Below are positions 2,060-62,716 of a DNA stretch of 64,000 bases, in pieces (position 1 is the stretch's first letter; each line of letters begins with the position of its first letter). The position numbers were made by a program, and so were the translations under genes. This stretch comes from Cetorhinus maximus (Eukaryota), in contig NC_135881.1 in NCBI RefSeq assembly GCF_964194155.1, positions 29,450,001-29,514,000 on the forward strand, in the 5' to 3' direction. The notes below the pieces were generated by a model, which ran no database searches, was not told the DNA's origin, and saw only the letters and a list, made by a program, of their open reading frames with translations.

Positions 2060-4545
2060 TAGGGTTTATGGGGGCTTGGGGGGGTGGCGGCTGGTGGGGC
2101 GGGGGGGTGTGGACTGCTTGTCCGCCCCCAGAAGGAATGTTGCCAGCAGCCGGTGCACCCATAAGCAGCCTGCCCCGCATCCATAAAACGCTGCCAACGG
2201 GCGAAACTGGGTGGCAGTGGGACTTTTTGCCCATCAGTGGGAGGAAGTCCCACCCTCGAGAGATGCCGGCCAATCCCGACAGCGCCGGAGCTCAGTGTTG
2301 GGCACTGCCGGGACTGCAAGCAAGTCCAGGAAGAAGAGAAGAGGGACGCTGGAAGGTAAGTCGGGCTCTTTTTGGATAGGGAGGGATTGGGCAGCACAGG
2401 GAGGGGGCTGAGGGGAGATGGGTGGTGGGGTTTCTGGCTTTGGAGGCCAGGTGGGAGGGAATGGGGTGGGGGGGGGGAGGGTAAAATTTTGTAAGGGGTA
2501 CCCCCAATGCGCAGATGGCATGCACCCACAGGACATACCCCCTTCCTTTCCACCTTATAAACATCTGCGTTTGAAAAACCACCTGCCCACTCCTGCCCGC
2601 TGCTCATGCCAACCATATCATGGCCTTGACAGCATGTGATCCGGGTCAATTGGCTTGTTACCAAAATTATTTCTTTAAATGTGGTGCTGATTTTGGCACC
2701 TGCCCACCCATGGCATTATGGGGGAGGCCCCGGGGGCGGACAGGAAGGTGTTGGACCTGCTGCCCGTCATATTTTATGTACCCGCCACCCTCATCGTAAA
2801 CACGCCCACTGGGCTGACGTAAAACCCAGCCCATAGCTCCTAAATCATTTTGGAATAATATAACCGTGGCCCAAAACTTCTGATCCGAATCAGAACCCCT
2901 GTGTTCAAAAGGCTCCAATTTCCCACCCACGATGCAGAAAACTCCCTCAGCGCAGGAATCCACACAGAGAGCAGCGAAGAAAATCAGTGCAGAAGCCCAC
3001 CGCACCCCTCCCCCAACTTTTACAATACCAGCCGCCATAAGGTAAGTTCAAATGTCCAGTGTGAATGGATGAATGAGTGAGTGAGTGGATGAATGAGTGA
3101 ATGGGTAGGGTGGGTGGGTGGATGTGTTAATTGGGTAGCGTGGCAGATGGGTGAGGTGGTAGAGTGGCAGGTTGGTGAGTTGGGTGGGTGGGTGAGTGGG
3201 TCGTTGGGTCGGGTCAGGAGGGGTTGTCAGGTCAGGCAGCGGGGAGTTGGGGCTGGGGGTTGAGTCGAGGGGTCACGGGGTAGTTGGGTGTTGGGGGCTA
3301 GTCAGGTTGAGTCTATGGAATTCATGGGGTCAGTGGGGGTTAGGGGTTGCGTTGGGGCGTCAGGGGGCTACTCAGAGGGTTGGGGGGGGTTAGAAGGTCA
3401 GGGGGTGTAGTTGTGGGTTCTGGGGTGGCAATCAGGGAATCGAAGAGGGAGTTGGAGGGGTTCAGTGTGAGTGATTGGGGGAGTCAATTGTATAGTCTCC
3501 CAGGAGTTAGAATAAGAATTTTCAGTCTAACATTTCCTGCACCACAATCCAGGTGTGTCTCACGGAACTGTCCAAGATCTCCGACCCCAATTCAGAGGGT
3601 ACTGGGCAATTCCCGTGGAGTCATTGCACTGGGACTCCCACGGGGTCCCAAAGTACATCAATGGGGGTACGTCTGATCTCCAATGATCCAGCGATTGTAA
3701 AATCAGGGCTGTTATAGCAGAAAGATTGCGCAAGGTCTGGGAAGGGATTTAATTGGGCAGTGAATGGCTTTTCCATATTCCATGATAGATTTTCAAATTC
3801 CATGGGACCTACTGTATGTTCATCCAAGCAGTTTTCTAAACTACCAGGGATACACTCGGAGGTATGATTTTCTAACATGACGGAGAGCTTCTTCGCAAAA
3901 AAAAAGAGGGGAAATCTAACCTCCAAAATAAAAAAGTTGGGTTTGGTAGGACGGGGTTCCAAAATTTAAAAATTCTAATATCCTCAGCCCAACCCACCAC
4001 AAGTCCCACCCATTTCTAGTTTTAACGGAGACGGGACGGGAGGGGGTGGAGGCAGGCAGCCAACCTCCGCTCAGGAGGTGGGTTGTTGGCTTAACGTTTA
4101 AATCAGGTTGCGAGCCTCAGAATTTATTTCCTTTTTAAGTTTCATCCAGCAGCTGAAGGGAGGCATGAGCTGCGGTGTGGAAGAGATAAGTGGCTTTTCT
4201 CAGTGGCTTACAGGCCAGCTGGGCCCTCAGCTAACCTGCTTCCGCCTCCAAGATCAATCACCCTCCCCCACCCCCACCCCCACCACCATCCACACTCACC
4301 TGTTAAAGGAACCTCCTGCCCTGTGACTGGGTCACTCTGGTCCCTGCCCTCCTGCCCCACCCAGCACCACGATTGGATCCTTCTTCGCTGATCCTCCCCT
4401 GATCACGTCCCACCCCATTCTTCGCTCCAATTTGCCTCCGACTTTCCAGCAATCAACTCCTATGCCTACAAGCCGCCCTGTATCCACTCCTCCCCCACAC
4501 CTGCCCACAATCTCTACCACTCGGGTAAAATTGGGCTCCCAGGCT
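2060..4545. mobile_element. Cluster of degraded GC-rich non-autonomous DNA transposons with G-rich tracts
   Basis: TIR-like ends (GTAAAACCCAGCCC at about 2832; GTAAAATTGGGC at about 4535) and a G-rich low-complexity tract at 3060-3480. Boundaries are approximate. Confidence 0.45.
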
Positions 4546-6113: not shown

Positions 6114-6817
6114 GGTAGAATTTTATATTGGGCAGGATTATTCACTGAGCAGGTGGGCGCGAGCCCAACCCGCTCGAACATAAAACGACGTGCGGTGACG
6201 TTGGGCGAGCATCCCAACATTATTGTGTACTCGCCCGCTATTTCGGTCAGTGGGCGCGTGCGGGAGTTGGCAGAGCGCCTGCTGACAATTAAAAGGCCTA
6301 TTAAGGCCATTAAAAATGTAATTGAATTATATTTCTCGCTGCCCGTCCTTACGGTTGGCGGGCAGGCGAAAAGGCCATGCATTTTTTGTGAAGCCTCATC
6401 CACGGGCGGGATGAGATTTCGACCTGTCGTTAAAAATAAACAAATTTCATCCTAATTTCTAACATGACCCTGCTCATGGGACAGAGTCACATGAGGGGAC
6501 ATGTTTTTTTTTAACATTTTAAAAATCTTTATTTCTAATTTTCAAAACTCTTCACCTCCCTGAGGCCGCTCTGTGCCTCAGGGAGCTTTTCCAGCGCGCC
6601 TCCGCCCGCATGTGCGAACTTGCACTGTTGCCCTCCTTGTCCCCCTCCCCCCCCACAACACAGGCAACGCTGAAGCACGAATTTCACGCTGGGTGGGCCT
6701 TAATTGGCCCATCAGCGTGAAATCCCGGCCCAACCCCGATTCCGGGCGACGGTGGACTTCCCGACTGCTCCCGCCTGCCCCTGCTGAGCCCGCCCTGATG
6801 AGGGAAAATTCCTGGCC
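6114..6817 (+). mobile_element. Harbinger-derived about 0.7-kb MITE
   Basis: Aligns with the 15691 and 49914 copies and shares the internal palindromes (cctcatcc..ggatgag; ccctgagg..cctcaggg). Confidence 0.85.
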
Positions 6818-7491: not shown

Positions 7492-8625
7492 CTTGATCGT
7501 GTACAACTCAAGACGACATTCCCCATATCGGGACCCATGGGATTGGGAACAATATATTAATATGAATTGGGGAATTGGTTACTGGAAAGAAAACAGAGAG
7601 CAGGGCCAGAATTTCCGGCACAGCTCGGTGAGCGGGGTCCGCTCGCTGAGGCGTAAAATGACGCGGGGTGATGTCGGGCATCATTTAGATTTTCAGTTCG
7701 GTGGGCGCGCGGCCGACTCAGCTGCACACCCGCCAAACTGGCAAAGGCCTATTAAGGCCATTTAAAAACTAATTAGAGAAATAAACTGAGCTGCCTGTCC
7801 AACCTTAAGGTTGGATGGGCAGGTGAAGAGCCCAGGCGGCCTGCGCATTTATCATGGAACCTCATCCACGGGCGGGATGAGTTCTTATGAAGTGTTTATA
7901 AATTGAATGAAAACTGAAAAAAAATTCATTGGCATGTCCCAGCTCATGTCACATGAAGGGACTTGTCTTAAAATTTTTTCTTTTCTTTATTCAGCTTTTT
8001 AAAACGTAAACTAATCTCCCTGAGGCACCTCTGTTCCTCAGGGAGATTTCTGCGCTCTTTTGCACGCATGCAGGCCCTGACTCAAGCAATCCCCCTTCCG
8101 CCCGCACAGGGAGCGCTCAGCACTTCCGGGTGCGCGTCACGCTGGGCGGGCCTTAATTGGCCCGCCCACTTAAAATGGCGACGTGGATCCGATTGGGGGC
8201 GCCAATTGGGTTCGTGCCCGCCTCATCACGCGCCATTGCGATATTTGGTTGGGCGGGCACATGATGATATCCGCTGCGCACCCGCCATTAATTAACGGGA
8301 CACTTAAGGCCCTCGTCTCACCAATCGGCACGATTTTTCGGCGCCCATGCAATTTTCGGGTCAGCGCACGGGCAAAACGGGCAGGCGAGTAGGAGATATT
8401 TGTATAAACCTCATCAAAGGGCGGGATAAGAGGGCTCACTGAGGTCGCGAATGTGCACAGTCAAGTATTGATTTTTCAAAGTTATTGAAACTTGCCTGTG
8501 TGATCTGCAATACTTCAAAACACATACCAGCTGCGTGGTCTGGACTCTTAACCTTCAGGTCAGCACTCTGCAGTGAGGAATCTTTTTTGGGCCTGCAGGT
8601 TTCTGGAAGTCTTCCCTTAGCCTGG

Positions 8626-9848
8626 GAATTGGAGTTGTGCTCTCCACTGGAGGCACCTCCTCTGAGGAGGAAGGGAGGGCTAGAAGGGGGAGGAGGCCAG
8701 GAATGCATATTCAGCCTCCAGTGGAGCCACCTTTGGGTGGACAGGCACAGGCACAAGGGGCGCAGGGCCAAGAGGTAGCCCCAGGCAGAAGGGGTCACAG
8801 AAAACGCCACTATCCTGCTGCCAGGGTATACAGGCGGCGAAGCAGCTACCTCAATATATCTGAGGTGCAGTGCCGAAGGAGGCTCTGTCTCTCAAGGGAG
8901 ACAGTCAACTGTATCTGTCAGATGATTGGGCCTGAGATCTCTGCGAACTGTGAGGGTGGACACCCCATACCAGTGGTTCTAAACGTCACAGCTGCCCTCA
9001 ACTTCTCTGCCTCTGACTCCTTCCAGGGCTCGGTGGGTGATCTTTGCGGTGTCTCCCAATCAGCTGTCCACACTTGTGTCAAACAGGTTACAGATGCTCT
9101 GTTCAGGCGTGCATTGACCTTCATCCTCTACTGTTAGGACCAGGCAAGTCAGACACAGTGAGCCAGAGGCTTCGCAGCCATTGCTGGCTTCCCCCGTGTC
9201 CAGGGTGCAATAGACTGTACACATGTGGCCATCAAGGCGCCAGCAGGTGAGCCCGGTGCCTTCGTCAACAGGAAGGGCTTCCACTCCATGAACGTGCAGA
9301 TAGTGTGTGATCACAGGATGCTGATTCTACAAGTCTGTGCAAGGTACCCAGGCAGCTCCCACGGTGCCTTCAGCCTCAGACACTCTCAGGTGCCGGGGCT
9401 CTTCAGTGCTCCGGCTTGATGGTTGGCTGCTGTGTGACAAGGGCTATCCCCTCAGAAGGTAGTTCATGACGCCTCTCCGCCATCCAAGAACAGAAGCTGA
9501 GCAGTGGTACAATAGGAGCCACGGCACCACAAAGGCTGTGGTAGAGAGAATCATCGGTGTTCTCAAGATGCGCTTCCGATGCCTGGACCGCTCAGGGGGC
9601 GCACTCTTGTACCCCCCAGATCGTGTCTTGGTGATAGTGGTTGCTGCTGCGCTCTCCACAATCTTGCGCTGGAACGGGGGAACGATGAAGACGTTGACGC
9701 AGTGTCTGCGGCTGCACACGATGAGTCCAGCAGTGAGTCCGAGGATGAGCAGGAAAAGGGAAATGCTGAGGGGGTAGACGCTGACCCGGGCATACTCCAG
9801 GGAGGCAGGGACACGTGGGAGGCTTTAATCCAACAAACCTTCAGCTAG
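8626..9848 (+). pseudogene. Harbinger (HARBI1-like) DDE transposase, disrupted
   Basis: Motifs GAIDCTHVAIK, VNRKGFHSMNVQIVCD, ARYPGSSH, WLLCDKGYPL, YNRSHGTTKAVVERIIGVLKMRFRCL. In-frame stops at 9135 and 9159 plus frameshifts. AATAAA at 9953-9958. Confidence 0.93.
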
Positions 9849-10149
9849 CACACCACATATGAACCTCCAGGACAAGCCTGGGCTGTCGGCTCCATACTCG
9901 ATACCCACGTGCAAAATCTGCCAGGTTAGGAACAGTAACTAAGGGCCTTGTTAATAAAGCTGAATGTCCCACAAATCACTCATAACATTTTTGGAAACCA
10001 TACACAGACAGAAGAAAAGAGGCACCCTCTGCCTTGGTCACTTGTCTGAATTTAATATCACAAGCAAAGAAATTTAAGCCAAAAAAATGACAATTGTGTT
10101 CCAATTCAAAGCAAATGATTAAGATCTCATCTCGGGCCAACACAAAAGC

Positions 10150-12120
10150 ACCAGTGATAAACCTGTGGTGTGCCTAAGGTGCCTTATGTTTACATTTCCA
10201 GGTGCTACGTCTTGGTGCTGCCCCATCGCTGGGAGTGGTACCTGAGACAGCCGGCTGACTCTGCTGTCCTGTTGGCCTGGATGACCTTGGCGGTCGTCCT
10301 CTGGCCCGTGGACCCTGTGCTGGCCCCACCTGGGAGGGAGCTGCCAGTTCCACAGCTGGCATCTCCCCAGTCGTCACAGCCTCACTAGATGATAAAGCAC
10401 TGGGAGAGGGGCAGAGGAGCTGAAGCCCTCATCCAGAGCGCCCTGAGAGGAGCCCACAGAGACGACAGGCAGCTGCTGCGCTGATGTACGGTCGCTTCGG
10501 AACTCCCTGCTCACCGTGGATGGATGGGCACCGAGCTAGGAAACTTGGTGCCCAGACCATATCCCACACTGGCACTGACCAGCTGTGGTCAAGGCCGATG
10601 TGATGGCTTGCTGGTCAGAGCGCATCCCCAGGAAGCCCTGACCGGTCTCCTGGAGGAGCCTCTCCATGAGAGTAGCCACTCGAGGACGCATGTCGCTCGG
10701 ATAAGTGACTCATTGCTTTGGGGATCTTCCGCGTAGACTCCTCCACCACGGAGACCAAGCCAAGCATAGCCTCATGTATCTCCCCCAGATGCTCCCACAC
10801 ACCCGGCCGCATTTCCTGCCCCTGCTGCGTCGCGGACGACTCCAGAAGCACATCATCAGGCACCGTCTGAGCATGTGCCTGGTACCCTGCAGTCCTTTGA
10901 CTGCTGGCACCATGGGCACTCTCTGCCTCTGCCAGCTCCTCCAGCGACTGTGAAGTGCCCTCACCGCTGTGCCCCGGGACACTAGCCGGTGTTCGAATTC
11001 CCACCGAGGTGCTGGTATCTGAGCTGGTGCCTGCCTGGCCGAGATGGTGTGACGCTGGTGAGACTTCAGGGCCCTCAGGTGTGAGAGGGGGCCTCTGCTG
11101 CTCCTCCTCCAGGCCCAGCTCCGCTGATGCTGAAAGGAAGAACAAGGACATTGGATCAGTTAACGCGGAGACAATGTCAATGTACATCCCTGTCCCCGGG
11201 TCATTATGCGCTCATCCTCCCATAAACAATGGTCAAGCCATGTTGCAAAATTAAATCAATTAACATTCAGCAGTGCCATGGCTGTTGGGAGAACAATGGT
11301 GACCTCACTGCTGGGCAAACATACCTGGCCATAGCGCCCCAGCCTCACCGACACCAGTGGACCTGGGCACATGGCGCCTCTCCAAATCCAGGGCCTCCTG
11401 CTCAAACTGGATCAGAATCGTGAACTGTGCCTGGCTCCACACCCACCCACCCTCCCCTTGGCCAAATGCTGCCTACATCACATTAGGCACCACACGGTAT
11501 ATCCTTCCATAGCAAGGAGGCGCAAGCACATGGAGCGCAGAGGGCAGCAGATGGTTCATTGCCACGTCACCTTGAAGCTCCCCTCCCAGCCTGTCATCAC
11601 CCTGACTTGCACATGTCCTGGATTTCCAGCACTGTGCCTGGGTGCAGCTCCTCCAGGTTGCCCCTAAAACAGTAATGTGGGTCTCAGTGTACCACATGCT
11701 GCGGGGGCAGAACCCGTCTCTTCACCACCCTCTCAGGGTGACCTCGGCATGGGCAATATCTGCTGACCCACCCAGCGAAGGACACAGGCCGTCAATGATT
11801 CAATGCAGTCACTACACTCAGACTTGGGGGCGGAGGGAGTCAGCAGCGGGGAAAGCCGACCTGCTGGGTTAGTGACCAATGCCAACATGGTACTCACCCT
11901 TCCTGAGCGCAACAAATCGTTGAAGCGCTTGAACACTGGATCCAGGTGCGCTGCACCACATCGCGGGAGCTCACCACCTCTGCCACCTCCTCCCAGGCAC
12001 ACTTCGTCATTTTGGGAGGCCTCCTCCTCCTGTCCTGGGGAACCAGCACCTCCTGTCGTGCTGCCACCTCCTCGAGGAGGGCAGCAAGTGCGGTCACCAT
12101 AAAAACAAGGGGCACACTGG
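10150..12120 (-). pseudogene. Harbinger ORF2 Myb/SANT-like DNA-binding protein (3 exons), disrupted
   Basis: Exon 1 reads ALLEEVAARQEVL..AWEEVAEVVSSRDVVQRTWIQC..RFNDLLRSGR|gtgagt and ends at 11898. Exon 2 ends at 11325; exon 3 starts at 11129 after ttcttcctttcag. Confidence 0.85.
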
Positions 12121-12683
12121 CCCCCCCCCCGCCCTATCCTCCAGCCTGGCCTGCCCCAATGGTCTACCCTCCAGACATGCGTTACCTTCAGTGCCCCTCT
12201 GCAGAGCCCTTCACCCAGCCATTGTGAGCAGCCTTTCGCACCTGCTCACGTTCCCGCTCCATCGGCGCCCCCCCCCCCACACCGTGCCAGCCAGAAAATT
12301 CAGCCCATAGACTCAAAATAAGGGGTCAGCCATTAAGAATTGAAATAAGGAGAGATTTCTTTAGTCAAGTGGCTGTGAATCTTTGGAATTCTCTGCCCAG
12401 ATAGTTGGGAATGTTCATTCATTGAGTATATTCAAGACAAAAGTCGAGAGAGTTTTGGGTACCAAAGAAATTAAGGGATATAGGGATAGTGCGGGAGCGT
12501 ACAGTTAAGGTAGATCAGCCATAATCTTGTTAAAGGGATAAATAGCTTAATCCAGCTCCTATTTTCTTGTGTAATTTAACACTGAGCCATATAAGGAGAT
12601 AGTAGGATCGGTGACCCAAAATTTGTTTAAAGAGTTACGCTTTAAGGAATGGCTTAAAAGAGAAAAGAGATTATGGTGAATAT

Positions 12684-15690: not shown

Positions 15691-16380
15691 GGGCTGAATC
15701 TTCGGCTCGGCCTGCGGGTGCAGGGCCCACTGGCTGAGGCATAAAATATCACGGGGTGACGTCGGGCGTGCGTCCTGACGTCACCGCGCGTCATTTAGAT
15801 TTTTAGTTCAGTGACTCGGCTGCGCGCCTGCTGAACTGTCAAAGGCCTGTTAAGGCCATTAATGAACTAATTAAGCCTATCGCGAAAGCTGCCCGTCCAA
15901 CCTTAAGGTTGGCGGGCAGGCGAAGAGCCCAGGCGGCTTTCGCATTTTTCATGGAACCTCATCCATGGGCGGGATGAGGTTTTATGAAGGGTTTATAAAT
16001 TAAATACATTTTTTCATTAAAGTTCATTGGCATGTCCCAGCTCATACGAAACTGTCACATGAGGGGACATTTATCTAAATTTTTTTTTTCTTTGTTAAAA
16101 TTTTTGGAACTTAAACTAATCTCCCTGAGGCAGCTCTGGCACTTAGGGAGGTTTCTGCGCTCTTCCGTGCGCATGCGTGAAAAAGCGCAGACCCTGACTC
16201 AGGGAACCCCTCTCTCCCCGCTCGGAGAGGGGGCGCTCAGCGCTTCCGGGTGCGCATCACGCTGGGCGGGCCTTAACTGGCCCGCCCACGTGAAATGGTG
16301 GCGCGGACCCGATCAGGGACGCCGATCGGACCTGCGCCCGCCCCCGCACAACCCCTTCGATGGGGTGGATGTTTCTACCC
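15691..16380 (+). mobile_element. Harbinger-derived MITE
   Basis: GGGCTGAA...TTCTACCC termini; TSD ATG/ATG. Confidence 0.88.
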
Positions 16381-26306: not shown

Positions 26307-26734
26307 CTATATTTTAAAAATGAAGAATTTCAATGGCTATAATATATTTAATTTATTGTAGTTTAGTCCTAAAAATAAGCACAGCCACATAAATACATCA
26401 TGTATATGTTAATACATTTGCACTTTTCATTAATATATATATTAAAATATATCAGCATATATTAACTTACACATATATTAATATGTATTAACATATGCAT
26501 TAATATAGGGAATAGTGATCATTGTATCATAAGCCACTCACCATCCGGAGTTGGAAATATATCGCCGTTCCTTCACTGTCGCTGGGTCAAAATCCTGAAA
26601 CTCCCTTACTAACAGCACTGTGAGTGTGCCTACACCACAGGGACTGCAGCGGTTCAAGAGGGCAGCTCACCACCACCTTCACAAGGGTAATTAGGGATGG
26701 GCAATAAATGCTGGCCGAGCCTGCGATGCCCACA

Positions 26735-27390
26735 TCGGACTTCATGGGGTCCGGAGTCGATGTTGAGGACTCCCAGGGCAACTCCCTCCTGACTGTATAC
26801 CACTGTGACACCACCTCTGCTGGGTTTGCCCTGACAGTCGGACAGGACATACCCAGGGATGGTGATGGTGATGTCTGGGACATTATCTGTAAGGTATGAT
26901 TCTGTGAGGAGGACAATGTCAGGCTGTTGCTTGACTAGTCTGTGAGGCAGCTCTCCCAATTTTGGCACTAGCCCCCAGATGTTAGTAAGGAGGACCTTTC
27001 ATGGTCGACAGGGCTGAGTTTGCTGTTGTCGTTGCCTAGGTCGATGCCCGGAGGTCCGTCCAGTTTCATTCCTTTTTTAAGGCCTTGTAGCAGTTTGATA
27101 CAACTGAGTGGCTTGCTAGGCCATTTCTGAGGGCATTTAAAAGTCAACCTGGAGCCACATGTAGGCCAGACCAGGTAAGGACGGCAGATTTCCTTCCCTG
27201 AAGAACATTAGTGAACCAGATGGTTTTTTACAACAATCAACAATGGTTTCGTGGTCATCATTAGAATTTTAATTCCAGATTTTTACTGACTGCAAGTTCC
27301 ATCATCTGCTGTGGCAGGACTCGAACCTGGGTCCCCAGGGCATTACCCTGGGTCTCTGGATTACTAGTCCAGCAACAGTACCACCACTCC
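26735..27390 (-). mobile_element. 5' end of CR1/Crack-like LINE: tRNA-derived head, 5' UTR and start of APE endonuclease
   Basis: B-box GGTTCGAGTCC (27317-27). LLTNIWGLVPKLGEL..QQPDIVLLTESYL..IPGY..RGGVTVVY. Abuts an inverted 3' tail of the family at 26535-26735 (+). Confidence 0.8.
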
Positions 27391-29789: not shown

Positions 29790-31405
29790 TGTTATGACAT
29801 GGCAGATGATGTGAGCCAGACAGATCAAATCCACAAGGGAAACTTGACTATGTGGCCACAAAAACTGTTTTGACATTTGTATTTTATTTCGAGATGCGTG
29901 CCTTGAATTCAGTGGTAATAAGTCCACCACGACTTCAGAGGTTCTTTAGAAAACTAAATTAAACATTTATTAACAAAAGAAAGGATTTCAAGCACATACA
30001 TAAGTCAACAAATTACTACTATAATAACTCCTAAAACCCCGAATTAATCTGGCTTCCAGTTACACGCAGGTTAAGGCAACAGTAAAAAACAAATAGATTT
30101 AAACAGACCCAGGCAAAGCACACAATACCCTGGACAGTGGAATTCAAAGTGAGTATTCTCAACTTCGGTTCCTGTAGACAGCAACTTAATGCATAGAGGC
30201 TGGAGGATTTTTACACTTGTGTTAGATCTTAGAATGTCTTCTTCCCTTACACATAGCCTCATCTCATTTATATATATTTCTTCTTTTTTAATGCAAATCC
30301 CATTGTTCCCATGGGCAGGATTTTCCGTTCGTCGGGCGGGTGTGGCGGGAGGGCGTGGGAGCGGCCGGGATAAGGTCTGCCCACCCGTGATTGGCCCTTG
30401 ATCGCGAATTCGCGCTGGCTGGCTGTTAATTAACGGCCATCCAGCGTGAAATGCGCACTGAAACGCTCAGTGCTGCCAGGGTGGGGGCAGGAAGAGGGCG
30501 AGAGTGGAAGTCTGTGCTTGGGCGGGGCAGCATGTGCTGAAAGCACCCTGAGGGCACAGAGCTGCCTCAGGGAGCTGAAAAATCGGAGAAATGAAAGTAA
30601 AGATTTAAAGATGATATAAACATGTCCCCACATCTGGACTCAGTCGGATGAAGAGGGACATGTTTAAAATGATGGTGAAAAGTATTTAATAGATTTTTAT
30701 TCACTGTTGGGAACCTCATTCTGCCCGTGGATGAGGTTTTGTTAAAAATGCAAAGGCTGCCTGGCCTATTCGCCTGCCCGCCAACTGAACAGTTGAACGG
30801 GCAGCGAAAAATATAAATTAATTAGTTGCTTAAGGGCCTTAATAGGCCTCTTAATTGTTGGCAAGCTCACTGCCGACTCCCGTACACACCCACCGACTGA
30901 AAGATCACCAGAGTACGCGATGACATTGGGATGCTCACCCGACGTCATCATGCGTGATTTTATGCCCAATCAGGTCGGGCGCGTGCCCGCCTGATGAATG
31001 TAAAATCCTGCCCCATGTTTTTGCAACTTTACTTTTGTCATAATATAAATCCTTTATAGTACTAATTTTATCAGTAACCTTCGGGAAAAATAAACACACT
31101 GTTTAGCTTAGTGTCTCCGGGCTGGTGTAACATCTTACCATCTCTTTGAAATTCAAACTACTCTGGTTTATCTAAAAATGCTAATTTTCCTTACACCTCA
31201 CATTCTAAAACTTCAGCCATGTTTACGTATTTAGCGTTTCAAACCTAGCTTCCTTTTCGATAACTCATAGACCCAAGACCAGCTGTCCCCAATTCAATTA
31301 AATCCCATACACATACTCATAGAGAAACTAATCCAAACCCCACTTTTAACTTACTCTTACAATAAATCACAATAATATTATGAAAATTAATATATTTTCA
31401 TGACA
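29790..31405 (-). mobile_element. Solo LTR (about 0.9 kb after removing the MITE), Gypsy-like
   Basis: TGTTATGA...TCATGACA termini; TSD ATAT/ATAT; AATAAA on the - strand at about 29966-71. Confidence 0.82.
30313..31013 (-). mobile_element. Harbinger-derived MITE inside a solo LTR
   Basis: Perfect 12-bp TIR GGGCAGGATTTT/AAAATCCTGCCC; TSD CAT/CAT. Confidence 0.92.
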
Positions 31406-37815: not shown

Positions 37816-39256
37816 AGAACCATAGAACCATAGAACACTGCAGCACAGAAAACAGGCCATTCGGCCCTTCTAGTCTGTGCCGAAATATTATTCCGCTAAT
37901 CCCATTGACCTGCACCCAGCCCATAACCCTCCAGACCTCTCCCATCCATGTATCTATCCAATTTATTCTTAAAACTTAAGAGTGAGCCCGCATTTACCAC
38001 GTCAGATGGCAGCTCGTTCCACACTCCCATCACTCTCTGAGTGAAGAAGTTCCCCCTAATATTCCCCCTAAACCTTTCCCCTTTCACCCTAAAGCCATGT
38101 CCTCTCGTGTTTATCTCTCCTAATCTAAGTGGAAAGAACCTACTCGCATTTACTCTGTCTATACCCCTCATAATTTTGTAAACTTCTTTCAAATCTCCCC
38201 TCATCCTTCTACGCTCCAAGGAATAAAGTCCTAACCTGTTTAATCTTTCCCTGTAACTCAACTCCTTATGACCCGGCAACATCCTAATAAATCTTCTCTG
38301 CACCCTTTCAATCTTACTGATATCCTTCCTGCAGTTAGGCGACCAGAACTGCACACAATACTCCAAAGTTGGCCTCACCAATGTCTTATACAACCTCACC
38401 ATAACATCCCAACTCCTATACTCAATACTTTGATTTATGAAGGCCAGTATGCCAAAAGCTTTCTTTACAACCCTTTCTACCTGTGATGCCACTTTCAGGG
38501 AATTATGTATCTGAACTCCCAGATCCCTTTGTTCCTCCGCACTCCTCAGTGCCCTGCCATTTACTTTATATGTCCTACCTTGGTTTGTCCTTCCAAAATG
38601 CAACACCTCACATTTTTCTGCATTAAATTCCATCTGCCATTTTCTGGCCCATTTTTCCAGTTGGTCCAGATCCCTCTGCAAGCTTTGAAAGCCTTCCTCG
38701 CTGTCCACAACACCTCCAATCTTAGTGTCATCAGCAAACTTGCTGATTCAATTTACCACATTTTCATCCAAATCATTGATATAGACAACAAACAACAATG
38801 GTCCCAGCACAGATCCCTGAGGCACATCACTAGTCATAGGCCTCCAGTCTGAGATGCAATCATCCACTACCGCTCTCTGTCTTCTCCCACACAGCCAATT
38901 TCGAATCCAGTTTACAACCTCTCCATGGATACCAAGTGTCTGAACCTTCTGAACTAACCTCCCATGTGGGACCTTGTCAAAGGCCTTACTAAAGTCCATG
39001 TAGACAACATCCACAGCCTTTCCTTCATCTACTTTCTTGTTAACTTCCTCGAAAATCTCTACAAGGTTCGTTAAACACGACTCACCACGCACAAAGCCAT
39101 GCTGACTATCCTTAATCAGCCCTTGGCTGTCCAGATAATTGTATATCCGATCTCTCAGAACACGTTCCAATAATTTACCTACTACTGACGTCAGGCTCAC
39201 TGGCCTGTAATTACCTGGTTTACTTTTGGAGCCTTTTTTAAACAACGGAACAATGT
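37816..39256 (-). mobile_element. Young 5'-truncated CR1 LINE (RT and C-terminus)
   Basis: ORF2 motifs [38 protein letters not shown] with one in-frame stop at 38748. (TTCTATGG)n tail; TSD ACTT; inserted in L2. Confidence 0.95.
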
Positions 39257-39376
39257 ACTTGAAGGAGGAGAGAGAGGTAAAGAGGTTTAGGGAGGGAATT
39301 CCAAAATTTAAAAGCTGAAGGATGAGCCACCAATGGTGGAGTAATGAATGTCAGAATCACAAGAGGTCAGAATTGG

Positions 39377-41093: not shown

Positions 41094-41777
41094 GGGAAGA
41101 GTTTTCTCCCCGTCGTGGGGGGTTGGGTGGGAGTGAGCATGGGTGGGCGCGCAGCCGATCGCCGCCATTTTGGGTGGGTAGGCCAATTAAGGCCCACCCA
41201 GCGTGACGCGCACCCAGAAGCGGTGAGTGCTCCCTGTGCGGGCGGGGGGAATAGGCTGAATCGGGGCCTGTGGTCTTTCGCGCATGCACGCGAAAGAGCG
41301 CAGAAATCTCCCTGAGGTACAGAGCTGCCTCAGGGCGATTAGTTTGATTTTTAAAAATTTTAATAAAGAAAAAAAATTTTAAGACATGTCCCCTCATGTG
41401 ACAGTGTCACATGAGCTGGGACATGTCAATGAATTTTAATTTAAAAAGTTATTTAATTTATAAACCCTTCATGAAACCTCATCCCGCCCGTGGATGAGGT
41501 TTCATGATAAATGCGAAGGCCGCCTGGGCCCTTTGTCTGCCCGCCAACCTTAAAGTTGGACGGGTAGCTCAGCTAATAACTTTAATTAGTTTTTAAAAGG
41601 CCTCAATAGGCCTTTGACAGTTCGGTGGGTGCGCAGTGGAGTCGGCTGCACGTCCGCCGAACTGAGGGTCAGAATGATGTGCGGTGCTGTTGGGACGCAC
41701 GCCCGACATCACCGCGTGTCATTTCACGCATCAGCGAGCGGGGCCCACCTCCACTCACCGACCCTAAGATTCTGCCC
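41094..41777 (-). mobile_element. Harbinger-derived MITE inside the Penelope ORF
   Basis: TSD TAG/TAG. Excision restores the Penelope reading frame HWDSYSSMH. Confidence 0.92.
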
Positions 41778-42582: not shown

Positions 42583-45263
42583 ATGGCCACTCACAGAGTG
42601 AGACAGAGAGGCTGCTCTCAGAGCACAGGAGCAGGAACAGGAGGAGGGGGGGCAGGCTGCAGGAGAGGCCAGTGGGGAGCCACTGTGCCCCTTGCTTCTT
42701 AGATGCCTGCCTTGCTGTCCTCCTCGAAGAGGCGTCCAGCCATCAGGATATTTTGTATCCAGAGGATGGGAGGAGGAGTGCCCCCCCACTTGACCAGGCA
42801 GGTGTGGGAGGAGGTGGGGGAGTCAGTAAGCGCCCATGATGCTGTGCGGCGCACAGGAACCCAGTGCCACAAGCGTTTCAATGATCTGTTGCGCTCTGGA
42901 AGGGTGAGTACCATGTCAGCCTTGGCCATTTTACCCAGCAGGTAGCCTTAGCCTTTGAGGCCCCACCCCTCACGTCTTAGTGTCGTTACTGCATTGGGCA
43001 TTTGGCACACGCTGGGTGGGCAAACAGACAGTGACCATGCTTACATCAGCGTTAGTGGTTGAGGAGAAGATGTGTTCTCCCTGCAGCATATGTTGGTGTT
43101 TGTCGCATTAGAGTAGTCTGGGGGCAACCTGCAGGGGAGGCAGCTAAACACATACTCAGAACTCCAACACATGTCTTATTGATGGTGATGAGATGGTGGA
43201 AGGGGAGCCTCAAGGTGTCGTGGCCAAGAGCCATCTGCTGGCCTCGGCGTCGCACCTAGTTGCGCATCCTTGCTATGGGCGCTAAGACCCATGTGTTATT
43301 CAAAGTGATGGAATGTGTCCAAGGTGGCCGTTGGGGGAGGGGGTTGGGAGCAGCCGTACTATCTTCTGGGGACTGATCACCAGTAGCGTGGACAGGAGCC
43401 ACTGGAGGCCTCAGGTGGGCCACTGTGGTTGGGGTGCGGTGTGCGTGTACAGAGTACATGAGCGATCAGCCCCAATAAATCCTTTTCTCTGTTCTGCAGG
43501 CAAAAACTGAGCACAATCTCAGGGAGCGCCAGAGGACTGGTGGTGGGCATGCCATGCTCCAGCGCCTCACCACCTATGAGGGGCAGGCGATGAAGCTGGG
43601 GGGGGGGAGGCAGGTGGCCAGGTTGGCAGGTGTCGGTGAGGCTGGGGTCCAGTGGCCAGGTATTTGAGGTCCTCAGTCCCATCCACTCTGTTTCCCCACT
43701 ATCCAAAGCACTGATGGTTGCTGCAATCATTAATGCAGCAACACTGCTCATTCACAGACTGATACAGTCAGACGTGTGGGTCATACACAAAGGTCCCTCG
43801 GCCTCTTGAGGATGTGCGTCTCCAGCACCTTCCAAAGTCACCTTATCCCATTTGTGACCACTATCCCCATGGCCTAACATGCCATGGCATCACTGCTGCA
43901 CATCCAAAGACTTATTGCATCTTAGGAGGGTTTGTTCCTCCACCACCCTTTCAGCCAGTGCGTCCCACATTACTCTGTCTAAAAGGTTCTCAGCACCTCA
44001 CCTGTCAACCTCATGGCACTCAACTTAAATAAATGCCACCACGTTACTCATCCCTGCTCCAAGGGGAAATGTTGCCTTCTGTCCACTCGTTCGATGCCCC
44101 TCATAACGATATGAAGGTCAATAATGTGACCTGTCAATCTCCTGTGCTCCACGGCAAATGTCGCAAGTGTTTGCAACGTTTCCTCATCACTCCAACTCTC
44201 CAGGCCAGCATGCATCCAGGTCAGGAACCTCTGCACTCTCCCCACTCCAATGCCACATAACATTCCATGTGGCATTCCTTAGGCCATCTGACCAGCCTGT
44301 CTGTATGCGCGTCTAATGTTTGGGCCTCCTCTTGACTCTTTTCCACCCCACTAATGTTCGTCTCCTTAGGGACTTGAAGGGTGAGCGACTTATGAGGCTC
44401 GGGGGGAAAGGGATGAAAGGTGTTACTGACTGAATGCTAACTGATGCACTGTCCTTGTTGTTAATTTCAGCATCACCACCGCATGGCCGCCCCCAACACG
44501 TCCAGAGCCCCCCCTCCACACCTGAGGGCCAACATTTGCAAATTGATGCACATCATTTCAGCCAGCCAGGCACCAGTGCAGCGACAAACACTTTGGTGGG
44601 GAATGCAACATTGGCGAGTGTCCCGGGTCACAGTGGAGAGGGCACTTCACAATCGCTGGAGGAGATGGCATGGACAGAGTGTCTCGATGGCACCAGCAGC
44701 CAGAGGGCTGCAGGGGACCAGGCACATGCTGAGTCCGGCAGTGATGATTTACCTCTGGAGGTGTCAGCCATGCAGCAGCTGCAGGACAAGCAGCAGGGTG
44801 TGCGGGAGCATCTGGCAGGGTTGCATGAGGGTGTGCTGCAGTTGGTGCCTGTGGTGGAGGAATCCAGGCAGAGTGTCAGTGATGGCATGAACCTCAGGAC
44901 AGAGCTTCAGGCTTCCTCCATTGAGAGATTGGCGACTCTCATGGAGAGCGGCTTCAATCAGATTGAGAATCTTCTGATTGGGTTACGCTCTGACCTGCAA
45001 GCCCTCACAGCGCTAATGGCCACAGGTGGTCATTGGCAATGTGGGAGATGTTCTGGGCACCAAGTGTCGGCGCTCGGTGCCCATGCATCTGTGTGAGCAG
45101 GGAGGTCCAATCTGACCTCACGTCGGTGCAGCAGCTGCCTGTCGTCGCTGCGAGCTCCTCTCAGGGCGCTCCGGATGAGGGCAGCAGCTCCTCCGCCCCT
45201 CTGCCAGTGACCGTTGCATCCGTTGAGGCTGCGACAACTGGGGAGGTGCCAGTTCTGGAACTG
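42583..45263 (+). pseudogene. Harbinger ORF2 Myb/SANT-like gene of H2 (3 exons)
   Basis: Exon 1 to 42903 (VWEEVGESVSAHDAVRRTGTQCHKRFNDLLRSGR|gtgagt). Exon 2 is 43500-43659 (AKTEHNLRERQRTGGG). Exon 3 starts at 44471. Confidence 0.87.
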
Positions 45264-46271
45264 CCACTATCACAGAGACACGATCTGGGGATTACTGGAA
45301 TGCATCCCCTGAGCGGTCCAGGCAACAGAAGCGCATCTTGAGAAGACCGATGGTTCTCTCCACCACAGCCCTTGTGGAGCCGTGGCTCCTATTGCAGCGC
45401 TCCTCAGCTTCTGTTCTTGGATGTCGGCGAGGTGTCATGAGCCACCTTCTGAGGGGATAGCCCTGATCACCCAGCAGCCATCCCTCCAGCCGAGCCAGAG
45501 CACTGATGAGCCCCGGCACCTGGGAGTATCTGAGGATGTAGGCATCGTGGGAGCTGCCTGGGTACCTTGCACAGACTTGTAGAATCAGCATCCTGTGATC
45601 ACACACTATCTACACGTTCATGGAGTGGAAACCCTTCCTGTTGACGAAGGCACTGGGCTCACCTGCTGACGCCTTGATGGCCACATATGTACAGTCTATT
45701 GCACCCTGGACACGGGGGAAGCCAGCAATGGCTGAAAAGCCTCTGGCTCGCTGTGTCTGGCTTGCCTGGTCCCAACGGAAGTGGATGAAGGTCAATGCCC
45801 GTCTGAACAGAGCGTCTGTAACCTGCTTGACACAAGTGTGGACAGCTGATTGGGAGATATTGCAAAGATCACCCACCGAGCCCTGGAAGGAGCCAGAGGC
45901 ATAGAAGTTGAGGGCAGCTGTGAGCTTCAGAGCCGCTGGCATGGGGTGTCCACCCTCACAGGTAGGGGAGATCTCAGGCCCAATCATCTGGCAGATATAG
46001 TTGACTGTCTCCCTTGAGAGATGGAGCCTCCTTCGGCACTGCACTTCAATCATATTGAGGTAGTTGCTTCGCCGCCTGTATACCCTGGCAGCAGGATAGT
46101 GGCATCTTCTGTGGCCCCTTCCACCTTGGACAACCTCTTGGCCCTGCACCCCTTGTGCCTGCGCCTGGCCTCCCAAAGGTGGCTCCCCTGGAGGCTGATT
46201 GTCCTCCTCCTTATTCTATCCTTCCCTTCCTCCTCAGAGGAGCTGCCTCCAGTGGAGATGTCAGAACCCAT
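45264..46271 (-). pseudogene. Harbinger DDE transposase of H2, disrupted and 3'-truncated
   Basis: MGSDISTGGSSSEEE start; GAIDCTYVAIK; VNRKGFHSMNV*IVCD (stop at 45610-12); YPGSSHDAYIL; GWLLGDQGYPL; RAVVERTIGLLKMRF. Confidence 0.93.
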
Positions 46272-47576
46272 ACCCCCAGGCTAAATGGAGGCCTCTGGAA
46301 AGCTGCAGGCCCGACAAAGATTACTGTCTGCAGACTGGTGAGCTGAAGCTTCAAAGTACAGAGAAAGCTCTTGGAAATCGATGTGAACTGCTAACAATCA
46401 CACAGGCAAGTTTAAAACACTTTCTGCATTAAATACTTCATGAAAAACATGAACAACCCCTCTGAATCCACATATGCCACCAGTGCATGAGTTTTGATAA
46501 GAAATCACCTACCCGCCTGCCCGTTGGGCCCGTGCGCCGAGCTGAAGTTTGCACGGGCACCTCAAAATCCTCATCGATTGGCAAGTTCAAGGCCTTAACA
46601 AGGCCTTTAATTAATGGCGGGCGTGCGTCCTGATGCTGTGCGCGCCCGCCAACCTAAATATCGCGATGCCGCGTGCTGATGTCGGGACGCTCGCGCGACG
46701 TCAGCGGGTGACATTTTAAGCGCTGACGTGCGGGCTCCATCACCCGCACGTCAGCCAGAAAATTCTGCCCAAGGTGAACGTGTCCCCTCATGTGACTATA
46801 TCACATGAGCAGGCACACGCTATAAATGAGATTTAAACATTTTTATTTTATTTTTAATTAACACTGGAAACCTCATCCTGCCCGTGGATGAGATTTCCTC
46901 AAAAATCCAAAGGCCGCTTGGCCTTTTCACCTGCCCGCCAACCAAACGGCTGGACAGGCAGCAAAAAACCTGATTTAATGAATTGATTAAGGGTCCTAAT
47001 GGGTCTGTTAATTGTCGGTGGGCGCGCTGCCGCCTTTCGCGTGTGCCCGCTGAGCGAAATATTGCGAGAGTACACAATGACTTCGGGATGCTCGCCTGAC
47101 ATCATCGCGCAATATTGTACTCTCGTTTGGATCAGGTGCGTGCCCGCACGAGGAGAGAAAAATTCTGCCCTAGGTGTCATTCCATCAAAAGTGCATTTCT
47201 TGTGGAAACCAACGAAGGTGTTTGTGACAGCCAGGCCTAGTGGGGATCCCATGGCAACATCATCTAACTGGGCATACATACGGTGTTGTTAAAACTGAAC
47301 TCAACTGCATGAGTTGCTGAATTCATAAGCTCAGTAAGTACATTCAGATATTGGTGATAGTGTCTAGATCACCATGATACAGCGATGCAGTGCAAATGTC
47401 TATGCCTTCCTTGAGCGGTACATTGGCGAATAGTCTAGCAATGTCGAATGAGCAAATAGACACAGCGTTGCTATTGATATGCAAGTCCTGTATAGTCTTC
47501 ACAAAGGTGAAGGAATCCTTCACAGAGTATCTGGGAAACTTGCTCAGAATTGGTTGTAGTCATTTGGCCAACTCAT

Positions 47577-53430: not shown

Positions 53431-56400
53431 GGCCAGAAGGGTCTGCTCCCATTGGTGGCGGGCGTCAATGGAGACAATATGGCTTGAAAGCAAAAAAGTG
53501 GCTTTACGCCATCGTGAAACCAGTTTGCAATCGCACACTCCGCCTGTCAATGGCGGGTTGCGTTTCCCACCGTCCAACGTCAGGAACTTAATTTTAATGC
53601 ATTTGCATCTCATCATTATGCCCGCACGCCGGAATCATCCCCCCTACATCAAATTACCTCCCGCATCGGCGTGACTGCAGAAAGGTGTGATTTATGACTG
53701 CCTTTAAAAGGCGTGCACCTGGCGAGCTGAACTTTGAGGGGAACTTGGAGGTGATTGCACCCAGCCTTCTGCAGCGCTCACGAGGATTGGCCCTAGGACA
53801 TCAAGGAAGAGGCACCATGCATTCGGAGGGGGAAACGGGCAAGTAGCTTTCTCCCGGCTGACTTTCGGTGCGGTGCTGGGACAAGAGCTCCAGTGGGGAT
53901 GCTCATGCAGCAACCCAAACTTTGGTGGAGCAAACGATCAGCATATTGAAAATGAGGTTCCGGTACCTCAACAGGTCAGGTGAAGCCCTGTAATACAGTC
54001 CCCAGAGGGTGCTGCGGATCATTGTCGCTAGCTGCGTGCTACCCAATCTGGCACTAGGTTGCCAGGGGCAGGACCTGGCTGAGGAGGTGATGGAAGAGCT
54101 ACACGTCTCCTCCGATGAGGTCGATGGGGACGAGCGTGATGATGTCCTCGAAGGCAAGGATGCCAGTGATGAGGCCATTGCACTGGCCAGACAAGGATAG
54201 AGCGCTCATGAGGCCCAAATACCTGCAAGATTCGTGGAGGATGGAGGCGAGATGCAGTGAGGGCAGTCCTGACATCCTCACTTTGCATCTGTGAACGTTT
54301 GACTCCTGTGTGACTGGTAGCAGCGTACATACCCTCAGTGCTCAGGCTCATGTCTTGGAGATGCAGTGGAGGCCCTAATAGTCACTAGATTTCAGGAGGT
54401 TGATGGTAACATGTAGTGAGGATGTTTCATATTGCCTCTGTGAATGTCTGACTCCTGTCTCGCAATTGTCTTTGCAGCTCCAACAACTGATTGAGGACTG
54501 AATCCAGAGGCTCATCATCTGACTCAGACTCAGCAGATTCCTTGCCTCCAGCAGTCCTCCGAGTGCCGGCGACTAAGGGTATCCCTGCCTCCATCTGCTG
54601 TGGAACAGATTGTGTACTGTGCTCACTAGATTGTGATCCCACCCAGGTCCCACCGAAGTGTGTGTCGCTGCGCTGGTGGAGAGTGTGTGTGAGCGTCATG
54701 GTGGGTTTTCAACAGTGCTGCCCTGTCCTTATCCAAGGTGCTCTTGGTGCTGGAGTTGGGGTCAAGTTAGCCTGAGGGTGTTGCAGCAGATGTGCCTAGG
54801 AGAGAAAGTGGAGATTATTAGTGCTTGGCAGCCGCACACAGAACAGTGGCCTAAGAGTTGTGTTGACGGAGGGATGATGTGGTGCAGGATCCTCACGTGG
54901 ATGCTTGCTGACCTCACCGTTGCCGCAGGAACGGTTCACGGCCTGTCCAGCTGGCTCTAATGCCTGACTCTTGAACAGAGTGAGGACCTTGATGTCTGGC
55001 ACTCCACCATCCCCCTGCCTGGGACCTCTCCCGTTGATTGTGCAAGATCTTGTCCTGCATAAAGACAGGTGAAGAGAGTGTGAGCAAGGCGTATGCCAGG
55101 CCAAATGAAAAGGATGCCAGGCATGTGTGCTGAGTGGAGCCATGGATGGGATGAGGAGGCCACCTCCAGAGGAGATGAGGCCAGATGGAAATGTGAGGAA
55201 GTGTGTGACAGGGTGAGTGGTGATGTCACTGAGCTGGCAGTGAGTGAGATGCCAGTGAATGTGTGATGGGCTTGTGAGTGTGTGTGTTTAGAGTGATGAG
55301 ATGGTTGACTTACCCTGGCGACATGGATGAGATCATTCATCCTCTTTCTGCACTGGATGGCCGACATGTTGTGTAAAGCGTTGGCACTGACCACCTCTGC
55401 CACCGCCTCCCAAGCCAGAGTGGTGACACTGATGGGGCCTCCTGTGGCCAGAGTGGAGATAAAGGTATATCCTGTACACAAAAAGCAGGACAAATCCAAC
55501 CCGACCAATTACCGCCCCATCAGTCCACTCTCCATCATCAGTAAAGTAATGGAAGGGGTCATCAATAGTATTATCAAGCGGCACTTGCTTAGCAATAACC
55601 TGCTCACTGATGCTTAGTTTTGGTTCCAACAGGGCCACTCAGCTCCTGACCTCATTACAGCCTTGGTTCAAACATGGACAAAAGAGCCGAACTCCCAAGG
55701 TGAGCCAAGAGTGACTGCCCTTGACATCAAGGCAACATTTGACCAAGTGTGGCATCAAGGAGCCCTAGCAAAACTGGAATCAATGGGAATCAGGGGGAAA
55801 ACTCTCTGCTGGTTGGAGTTATACCCAGCACAAAGGAAGATGGTTATGGTTGTTGAAGGTCAGTCATCTCAGCTCCAGGTCATCACTGCAGGAGTTCCTC
55901 AGGGTCGTGTCCTAGACCCAACCATCTTCCGCTGCTTCATCAATGACCTTCCTTCCATCATAAGCTGAGAAGTGGGGATGTTCGCTGATGATTGCACAAT
56001 GTTCAGCACCATTTGTGACTCCTCAGATACTGAAGCAGTCCATGTCCAAATGCAGCAAGACCTGGACAATATCCAGGTTTGGGCTGACAAATGGCAAGTA
56101 ACATTCACGGCACAGCAGTGTCAGGTAATGACCATCTCCAACAAGAGAGAATCCAACTATCGCCCCCTGGTGTTCAATGGCATTACCATCACTGAATCCC
56201 CCACTATCAACATCCTGGAGGTTACCATTGACCAGAAACTGAACTGGACTAGCCATATAAATACTGTGGCTAGAAGAGCAGGTCAGAGGCTAGGAATCCT
56301 GCGATGAGTAACTCACCTCCTGACTCCCCAAAGCCTGTCCACCATCTACAAGGCACAAGTCAGGAGTGTGATGGAATACTCCTTGCTTGCCTGGATGAGT

Positions 56401-57234
56401 GCAGCTCCCACAACACTCAAGAAGCTCGACACCATCCAGGACAAAGCAGCCCAATTGATTGGGACCACATCCACAAACATTCAGTTCCCCCACCACCGAT
56501 GGATAGTAGCAGCAATGTTTATCATCTACAAGATGCACTGCAGGAATTCACCAAGTCTCCTTAAACAGCACCTTCCAAACTCACGACCACTACCATCTAG
56601 AAGGACAAGGGCATCAGATAGATGGGAACACCACCACCTGGAAGTTCCCCTCTGGGTCACTCACCATCCTGACTTGGAAATATATCACCGTTCCTTCACT
56701 GTCGCTGGGTCAAAATCCTGGAACTCCCTTCCTAACAGCACTGTGGGTGTACCTACACCACATGGACTGCAGCGGTTCAAGAAGGCAGCTCACCACCACC
56801 TTCTCAAGGGCAATTAGGGATGGGCAATAAATGCTGGCCTAGCCAGCGAAGCCCACATCCTGTGAATGAATTAAAAAAGGACATTGCCTTGGGCCTCCCT
56901 GGCATCCAGAATGTGTCCCAGGGATGTATCACTGAATCAGGGGGCTGCGCTCTTCTTGGCTTTTGGGGCCATGTCTTCACCGGAGCAGTTCTGGGCTGCA
57001 AGCATTGGGAACTGTGCATGCGCCTGAAGTTTAAACATGGTACCCGGAGTGAGGAAGCAGCGAGGCAACGTCGTGGAGGGCAAATCAGAGGCCGGCCACC
57101 AGCAATCTGCTGTGTTTCCCATGACTGCCCAATTTATGAGGTAAAAGGGGACAATAGTTACCTGTGGTCAGCAGGTAAAGCATCTTTTTTCACGCCTGCT
57201 ACCGCACTTAACACAAATCTGGGAGATTCTGCCC
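53431..57234 (+). mobile_element. Old PIF/Harbinger element H4, internally deleted, inserted in a LINE and itself interrupted by a LINE
   Basis: Termini GGCCAGAA...ATTCTGCCC. Transposase 3' remnant about 53905-54260 (VEQTISILKMRFRYL..IIVASCVLPNLAL). Myb-like gene on the - strand from ATG 56972 (MAPKAKKSAAP..AWEAVAEVVSANA..IQCRKRMNDL|gtaagt); exon 2 is 55054-54897. Confidence 0.8.
55466..56875 (+). mobile_element. 5'-truncated CR1/Crack-like LINE inside H4 ORF2 exon 1
   Basis: NYRPISPLS, ALDIKATFDQVWHQG, GVPQG, FADDCT. 3' tail AAGGGCAATTAGGGATGGGCAATAAATG plus A-run; TSD AAAGG. Confidence 0.9.
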
Positions 57235-61767: not shown

Positions 61768-62716
61768 ATTTATTCTTTCATGGGATGTGGGTGTCACTGG
61801 CAAAGTCATCATTTGTTCCTCATCCCTAATTGCCCTTGAACTGAATGGCTTGTTTGGGCATTACAGAGGGCAGTGAAGAGTGAACCACATTGCTGTGGGT
61901 CTGGAGTCACATGCAGGCCAGACCAGGTAAGAATGACACAGATTTCCTTCCCTAAAGGGACGTTAGTGAACCAGGTGTGTTTTTACAGCTATTGAAGATA
62001 GTTTCATGGAGTAAAATGTTTAGCTCGGCGGGTGGGTGCCCACCCGACCCACCCGACCCACTTGAGCATGAAATGCCGTGCATTGATGTCGGCCGAGCGT
62101 GCCGATGTCAACGTGCAGTCGCCGGGTGCGCGCTGGAGTCAGCGGCGCATCCCTTAACAATTATAAGGCCTGTTATGGCCATTAAAGAATCAATTAACTT
62201 AAATTTTTCGCTGCCCATCCAACCTTATGGTTGGCGTGCGGGCGAAAAGGCCAAGCGACCTTTGAAATTTTTTGGAAACCTCAACCAGAGCCACATGAGG
62301 GGACATGTTTCATTACATTTTTATTTTTTAATATATCTCTTCATCTTATGAAGTGCACACTCACACATGCGTGAAGTTTGTGCTCGCCCCCGCCCGCTCG
62401 CTCGCTCGCTCGCCCGCTTGCACAGGCAGCGCTGACTGCCACTTGCGTTTCATGCTGGGCGGGCCTTAATTAGCCTGCCAATGTAAAATCACAGTCCAGC
62501 CCTGATCGTGGGCTTCCTGACTGCCCCTGTCCAACATGTGCTAAATTCTGCCTATGGTAACCATTACTGATTTTAGTTTTTGATTCCAAATTTTATCAAT
62601 TGAATTTAAATTCCATCAGCTATCATGGTGTGATTTGAACCCATGACCTCAGAGCATTAGCCTAGGCCTCTAGATTACCAGTCCAGAGACATTACCACTA
62701 CACTACCATCTCCCCC
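61768..62716 (-). mobile_element. tRNA-headed SINE with LINE-derived 3' tail (interrupted by a MITE)
   Basis: A-box TAGTGTAGTGG; B-box GGTTCAAATC. Body homologous to 27102-27390; tail homologous to 56805-56875. Confidence 0.85.
62008..62552 (+). mobile_element. Harbinger-derived MITE inside a SINE
   Basis: Family motifs; flanks CAT/TAT. Excision restores the SINE body gtttcatggtaacc. Confidence 0.82.

Follow-up and report, generated by a model that had tools for sequence, protein, structure and literature searches.

LINEs are generally regarded as coding units of RNA polymerase II (Pol II) and are copied by target-primed reverse transcription; SINEs are non-coding units of RNA polymerase III (Pol III). 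Bipartite SINEs of RTE and Vingi elements (Bov-tA, CoeSINE4; Kojima 2018, PMC5786205) consist of a tRNA head, a LINE 5′ UTR and a LINE tail. That work proposes that a tRNA head is added to a headless two-ended LINE derivative, treats the LINE as a Pol II unit and reports such SINEs from RTE and Vingi only. In Lepidoptera, the short SIDE Persaeus combines the 5′ and 3′ ends of CR1-Zenon and has arisen repeatedly, and is described as having neither tRNA similarity nor a Pol III promoter (PMC6740152). Zenon elements of sharks and rays (CR1 group) have been catalogued by Stuart et al. 2026 (PMC13343379) as CarCar_, ScyCan_, RhiTyp_, HypSab_ and SquAca_Zenon; Zenon is defined there as lacking ORF1 and ending in a poly-A tail.

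Here we report on a window of 64,000 nt from the genome of Cetorhinus maximus (contig NC_135881.1), which contains a dead and broken copy of an abundant shark and ray LINE (positions 27390-26738, − strand). An earlier note, made from the sequence alone, had taken this locus for an apparently ORF1-less LINE whose 5′ end derives from a tRNA. The reading that we modestly favour is that the copy stems from a 3.28-kb Zenon-type LINE with a single APE-RT frame, no ORF1 and a tRNA head, which was likely transcribed from end to end by Pol III and gave rise to a SINE by internal deletion. The Zenon clade, its lepidopteran deletion derivatives and the two-ended SINEs of RTE and Vingi are known; an autonomous LINE that itself carries a tRNA head is unusual. 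Searches over listings and abstracts of the openly accessible literature turned up no shark LINE described as tRNA-headed or as transcribed by Pol III. The features of the window are listed in Table 1.

Table 1. Features of the window; majority positions refer to the majority sequence of the LINE.
Feature	Position	Strand	Remarks
tRNA-derived head of the LINE	27306..27390	−	hairpins of the anticodon arm and a long variable arm; likely tRNA-Ser origin
B box GGTTCGAGTCC	27327-27317	−	window copy of the LINE
A box, decayed in the window copy	near 27391-27381	−	
5′ UTR body common to LINE and SINE	27102..27231	−	conserved; not a Deu domain
Conserved AUG 3′ of the A-rich spacer	27067..27069	−	out of frame with APE-RT; start of a short, overlapping reading frame
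Start of the APE endonuclease frame (V-L-L-T-N)	26738..26995	−	window copy ends at majority position 685
3′ piece of a second copy of the same LINE, opposite orientation	26531..26736	+	majority 3066-3271, 92.7%; abuts the break
5′-truncated copy of the same LINE	55463..56872	+	94.7% to majority 1875-3284; RT, C-terminus, tail hairpin, AATAAA, short T/A end
Head of the SINE: tRNA-like part plus next segment	62554..62715	−	
SINE body, followed after the join CAGTT/CAAGGG by the final 68 nt of the LINE	61769..62009	−	body 62009-61839, tail 61839-61769
MITE-like insertion in the SINE, ~545 nt	62010..62553		later event; flanked by a (C)CAT duplication
Relatives of the MITE-like repeat	near 6127-6705, 7625-8222, 15691-16342, 30310-31016, 41160-41777, 46777-47170, 49929-50518		
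4-kb element, two inverted copies that have diverged	8223-12151 and 42650-46679		transposase-like frame (GFPRVQGAIDCT motif) and a second frame
Young canonical CR1 fragment, used as control	37935-39284	−	genome copies 96-97% identical
RTE-like LINE, used as control	58737-60447	+	T-poor coding strand (16.8% T) with a single T-run over 2.7 kb

Anatomy and family of the LINE

The window copy aligns with positions 12-685 of the family majority sequence at 89% identity. ARAGORN predicts a tRNA-like gene at 27306-27380, and the Rfam tRNA model, whose gathering score is 29, gives the head no more than 19.5 bits. Head and body together measure 289 nt and end at 27102 with the letters AAGCCACTCAGTT; the distance from there to the start of the endonuclease at 26995 is 107 nt, which the earlier note had put at about 130 nt. 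Exo_endo_phos families were matched in Pfam on sister copies. At the break (26531-26738), the 5′ piece and the opposite-strand tail piece join tail to tail, both without their 3′ ends, a geometry unlike twin priming and closer to a deletion that occurred later, between copies in inverted orientation.

A genome search with the body-to-APE junction gave 40 scored matches, all of which spanned the junction (83-87% identity). From the 39 other places 7.5 kb each were fetched: 30 copies came within 51 nt of the 5′ end, 36 extended to the RT and 31 to the tail, and 15 aligned from head to tail in a single piece, which bears out the supposition that the APE piece and the tail of the truncated copy at 55463-56872 belong to one family. 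Since this set had been selected by the junction itself, a second search used the APE alone. Of 60 loci fetched, 54 remained after removal of six duplicates or self-hits (three of the 54 represent one segmental duplicate); the head was reached (within 51 nt of the 5′ end) in 34, while 12 went no further than the body and the remaining 8 no further than the spacer or APE. Among these 54 loci we found no ORF1 or other 5′ end, no alternative 5′ UTR common to the upstream flanks, and no headless full-length family. Counts of 31-nt patterns in the genome gave 681 exact copies of the LINE junction and none of the reversed-pattern control.

In the majority sequence, built from those 24 of the 39 copies that carry no large insertion, head, APE, RT and tail formed one multi-copy element of 3.28 kb (3282 nt), conserved from the tRNA head to the A-tail. 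Full copies begin at the first bases of the head and continue with the conserved body, a single APE-RT frame and the A-tail. The majority sequence has one stop-free frame of 975 codons with intact APE (TNIWG, LTESY, YRPP, GDFN, SDH) and RT (FADD) motifs, and Pfam confirmed RVT_1 and endonuclease families on real copies. The anatomy of the LINE, with a tRNA head, an APE-RT frame and no ORF1, is near certain and holds genome-wide. No convincing target-site duplications were seen in the 17 copies inspected. The tail has at least about 9,700 exact matches in this genome, an abundance by which the LINE has shaped shark and ray genomes. Much older 3′ pieces of the same lineage (57238-57732 and 11541-11798, 68-72% identity) indicate that it has been long-lived in Cetorhinus maximus.

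Judging from sequence likeness, we identify the LINE as the catalogued elasmobranch Zenon (Stuart et al. 2026, PMC13343379). Two of its motifs occur in 5 and 6 rows of the supplement of that paper, and its majority sequence resembles CarCar_Zenon-1 (3288 nt) nearly letter for letter, by eye over the first 400 nt. It shares with the published elements the lack of ORF1, a single frame with APE and RT, and the poly-A tail. The absence of ORF1 is therefore ordinary for the clade, and it is the tRNA head that is unusual. By eye, the same head stands at the start of six further shark and ray consensuses, that is, of all seven published elasmobranch ones, and it is absent from the hagfish and coelacanth Zenon 5′ ends (first 400 nt in each case). 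In the main text of the paper 'tRNA' and 'polymerase III' do not occur and 'SINE' occurs once, in a reference; its available parts do not describe the head, the loss of T-runs, the missing AUG or the partner SINE.

In an RT tree built without named Zenon proteins, the LINE stood apart from canonical CR1-like proteins and among unnamed single-ORF relatives (~40% identity). A search with an older copy (L306) gave matches of at most 87% identity and thus no distinct young sister family. Among 80 metagenome loci of invertebrate relatives, mostly distant, a B-box-like word lay upstream in 2 of the 30 best, which is about the chance level; the coding strand of both is rich in T-runs.

Other repeats of the window include an abundant MITE-like repeat with GGGCAG(A)ATT-type ends, which may be of Harbinger-type origin; one copy sits in the SINE. 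The transposase-like frame with the GFPRVQGAIDCT motif in the 4-kb element is presumably Harbinger-like, and the YADD context of the LINE at 58737-60447 is presumably of RTE type.

Promoter, terminators and translation

ARAGORN folds the head of the family into a tRNA of 89 nt that has a long variable arm. Against a host tRNA-Ser(AGA) gene the head scored 61-64, with 1000 shuffles reaching at most 49.5, or at most 48 where the score was 64; this gene, the only tRNA compared, was located with a pattern taken from the LINE itself. The head likely derives from tRNA-Ser. Between the majority sequences of the LINE and the SINE, the A box (11-21) is identical and the B box (75-85) differs once, inside the consensus R. 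By eye, both boxes are near consensus across the published elasmobranch 5′ ends (first 400 nt) and the stretch between them is variable; the B box of the ray consensus reads GAGTTGAATCC, which we counted against transcription by Pol III.

The shortest Pol III terminators are TTTT and TVTTT (PMC8466645). In the count of internal T-runs that the earlier note had suggested, the coding strand of the LINE majority contains no TTTT, no TVTTT and no window with five Ts in six, as against 14, 12 and 24 on the other strand. In majority sequences of two control LINEs from 25 loci each, the corresponding coding-strand counts were 14, 10 and 18 (CR1) and 1, 3 and 5 (RTE-like; T-poor, which accounts for its single TTTT over 2.7 kb). 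In shuffles that kept protein and codon usage, terminator-like motifs (TTTT and TVTTT) numbered 0 against 4.3 expected, a value that 26 in 5000 shuffles reached; there were 4 TTT runs where 12.8 were expected, with none of 5000 shuffles as low; the same two tests gave 1488 and 209 of 5000 for CR1 and 1328 and 447 of 5000 for the RTE-like element. For TTTT alone, P was 0.01 in base shuffles and not significant in dinucleotide (0.18) and synonymous (0.09) shuffles. The observed/expected ratio of TTT was 0.28 in the LINE and at least 0.61 among 80 other LINE segments from metagenomes.

Single copies show the same asymmetry, with 0-1 TTTT and 13-18 AAAA in 14 real full-length copies and 0-2 TTTT in seven pattern-picked ones; two older, more decayed copies (L306 and L308) have five TTTT each, which we counted against the Pol III reading. 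The phenylalanine share of 1.8% is not significantly depleted (residual z −1.6 among 127 relatives); that of a lancelet relative (P0018) is still lower (1.5%). Contigs of four runs that we guess to be RNA cover the whole LINE, in a form from which start, strand and polymerase cannot be read. The lack of terminators on the coding strand exceeds that of codon-preserving shuffles and has no counterpart in the CR1 and RTE-like controls, and therefore favours Pol III over the whole element. From the sequence evidence, we rate transcription of the LINE by Pol III as about equally probable as its contrary.

The head might instead be a passenger, with a Pol II transcript starting in the body or reading through from the host, and the T-poor strand a constraint of RNA stability, export or splicing. 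The body is the most conserved 5′ part (3/145 nt differ between the LINE and SINE majorities, against 5/53 between the boxes), and, being better conserved than the tRNA part, might itself be the true promoter. In Lepidoptera, Zenon and the derivative that arose from it by deletion are reported to work without a Pol III promoter (PMC6740152), the LINE has an AATAAA 40 nt before its end and an A-tail, and Pol II would supply the cap for translation. Against this, full copies begin at the first bases of the head, as expected of an internal Pol III promoter, and the depletion spans both terminator types and is specific to TT-containing codons (NTT/NTC 43/99 against NVT/NVC 160/216, P 0.012; controls P 0.17 and 0.20). 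We regard a passenger head as possible but rather unlikely.

The AATAAA lies upstream of a T-run of variable length, which is followed by the A-tail. By hand count, 22 of the first 100 LINE tails listed have at least four Ts before the A-tail, and most have a single T. This layout would fit the T+ class, and is likewise compatible with Pol II or with change after insertion. T+ SINEs (B2, Dip, Ves; PMC8466645) share AATAAA, T-run and A-tail with the LINE but are short and non-coding, whereas the LINE is coding and has mostly single-T tails; T-runs before the A-tail can lengthen after insertion, according to the same source. The SINE has AACAAA at the upstream site where the LINE has AATAAA.

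Under the favoured reading, the A and B boxes of the head would direct end-to-end transcription by Pol III, which could pass through the entire LINE because its stop signals would have been lost under selection. Transcription would finish at the 3′ T/A stretch or in the flank; the RNA would acquire or retain an A-tail and, like that of other LINEs, would serve as template for target-primed reverse transcription. To our knowledge, there is no known route by which an uncapped 3.3-kb RNA without an in-frame AUG is efficiently translated. L1 ORF2 can be translated independently of AUG, and translatable Pol III RNAs exist in engineered systems. The majority sequence has no in-frame AUG before the endonuclease; its first in-frame methionine is residue 291, past that domain. 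An upstream ATG is conserved in 66 of 81 copies, 80 nt before the start of the APE, at a distance that is not a multiple of three in 77/81; any in-frame upstream ATG occurs in 5/81. By eye, the ray consensus keeps the distance from AUG to APE, and the A-rich spacer that precedes the AUG differs in length from species to species, so translation would start at or after the conserved AUG. Ribosomes would most likely load there and then reinitiate or shift (−1) into the APE frame.

The TTG at the end of the body was rejected as a start codon: it is in frame in 53/81 copies, but in the published dogfish and whale-shark 5′ ends either a stop comes after it or it lies in another frame. In SquAca_Zenon-2, a shorter family, the upstream AUG shares the frame of the endonuclease as the result of a small deletion (by eye), unlike in the ray consensus and the copies studied here. 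Rfam searches of 20 loci gave chance-level matches only and no ribozyme or IRES family. Head and body fold no more stably than shuffles (z −0.3 to −1.5), and the tail of the SINE is the sole part to reach z −2.1.

Origin of the SINE

The SINE at 62715-61769 consists, as the earlier note had recognized, of LINE head and body followed by the LINE tail, a junction found in 2137 exact copies genome-wide (reversed-pattern control 0); the note did not mention the repeat of ~545 nt inserted in it. The SINE majority (30 copies, 391 nt) corresponds to LINE 1-315 (90%) and LINE 3216-3283 (90%) with an overlap of 1 nt. With a tRNA head containing A and B boxes, a short, non-coding sequence, a LINE-derived tail and amplification as a unit, it fits the SINE2 type, and may already carry a database name. 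Among the first 100 listed places with the end of the body, a hand count gave 56 SINE, 37 LINE, five other junctions and two ambiguous cases.

The earlier note took a shared 3′ tail as the usual extent of SINE and LINE similarity. The arrangement does go beyond this, but LINE 5′ parts in SINEs were already known from RTE and Vingi (PMC5786205), whose bipartite SINEs have the same tRNA head, LINE 5′ UTR and LINE tail. Like Persaeus (PMC6740152), the SINE consists solely of the 5′ and 3′ ends of a Zenon; the tRNA head with its Pol III boxes sets it apart. SacSINE1 and the DeuSINEs (PMC5499810) are likewise tRNA-headed with a conserved body (SacSINE1 in sharks), but are characterized by Deu hallmark motifs and an L2 tail. 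Our first guess, that the body was that of SacSINE1/Deu, was ruled out by the absence of Deu motifs and by the tail, which is Zenon and not L2, and the idea of a Deu domain as LINE 5′ UTR was dropped with it. In this motif comparison (motifs from the alignment in the supplement of PMC7245038), four of five short motifs were absent with one mismatch allowed, and the fifth, a 7-mer, had chance-type matches only.

The SINE is most simply read, from these sequences, as a deletion product of an older LINE subfamily: an internal deletion would have kept promoter and tail, and the product would have been mobilized in trans. The reversed order can be envisaged with either polymerase, in that a headless Zenon gave a two-ended derivative that became the SINE by acquiring a tRNA head, and the LINE regained head and body by template switching in the shared body. 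That is the route to SINEs proposed in PMC5786205. It would also suit the distance of 10% between the heads of the SINE and the dominant LINE, which sort to their own majority in 28/30 SINE and 38/39 LINE copies; the average identity of SINE copies to their own majority (86%, against 88-93% for most pattern-picked LINE copies); and the occurrence of the SINE-type head in 5 of 73 loci with head and APE (six rows, one locus twice). We nevertheless consider the reversed order unlikely. The APE-alone search found no headless full-length family among its 54 loci, and all seven published elasmobranch consensuses carry the head, the dogfish one with diagnostic bases of the SINE head (by eye). The SINE head also resembles the older copy L306, a LINE that combines a SINE-type head with older APE variants. 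There are at least four further deletion junctions (fetched examples 319-3231, 315-3213, 385-3119 and 561-3186), and several independent junctions suggest that deletion is recurrent. Within the head region of the older-type copy L306, a stretch of the 5′ UTR is replaced by a LINE tail piece (L306:3500-3570). The earlier note had also allowed for a chance insertion of a SINE beside a truncated LINE, and although the window copy is broken and abuts a second LINE piece, this is ruled out with near certainty by the hundreds of exact junctions, the colinear full-length elements and the APE-alone search.

The fuller proposal, to which we give an even chance, is that elasmobranch Zenon is an autonomous coding element transcribed over its full 3.3 kb by Pol III, with a captured tRNA-Ser promoter, terminator-avoiding recoding and cap-free, AUG-less translation, from which one deletion yields a complete SINE. 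If this is true, the RNA of the LINE would represent a naturally occurring Pol III mRNA of 3.3 kb that encodes a protein of ~940 residues, and cap-independent, AUG-less translation would become directly testable. There would also be a route to SINE birth in a single step, which would account for head, body and tail together.
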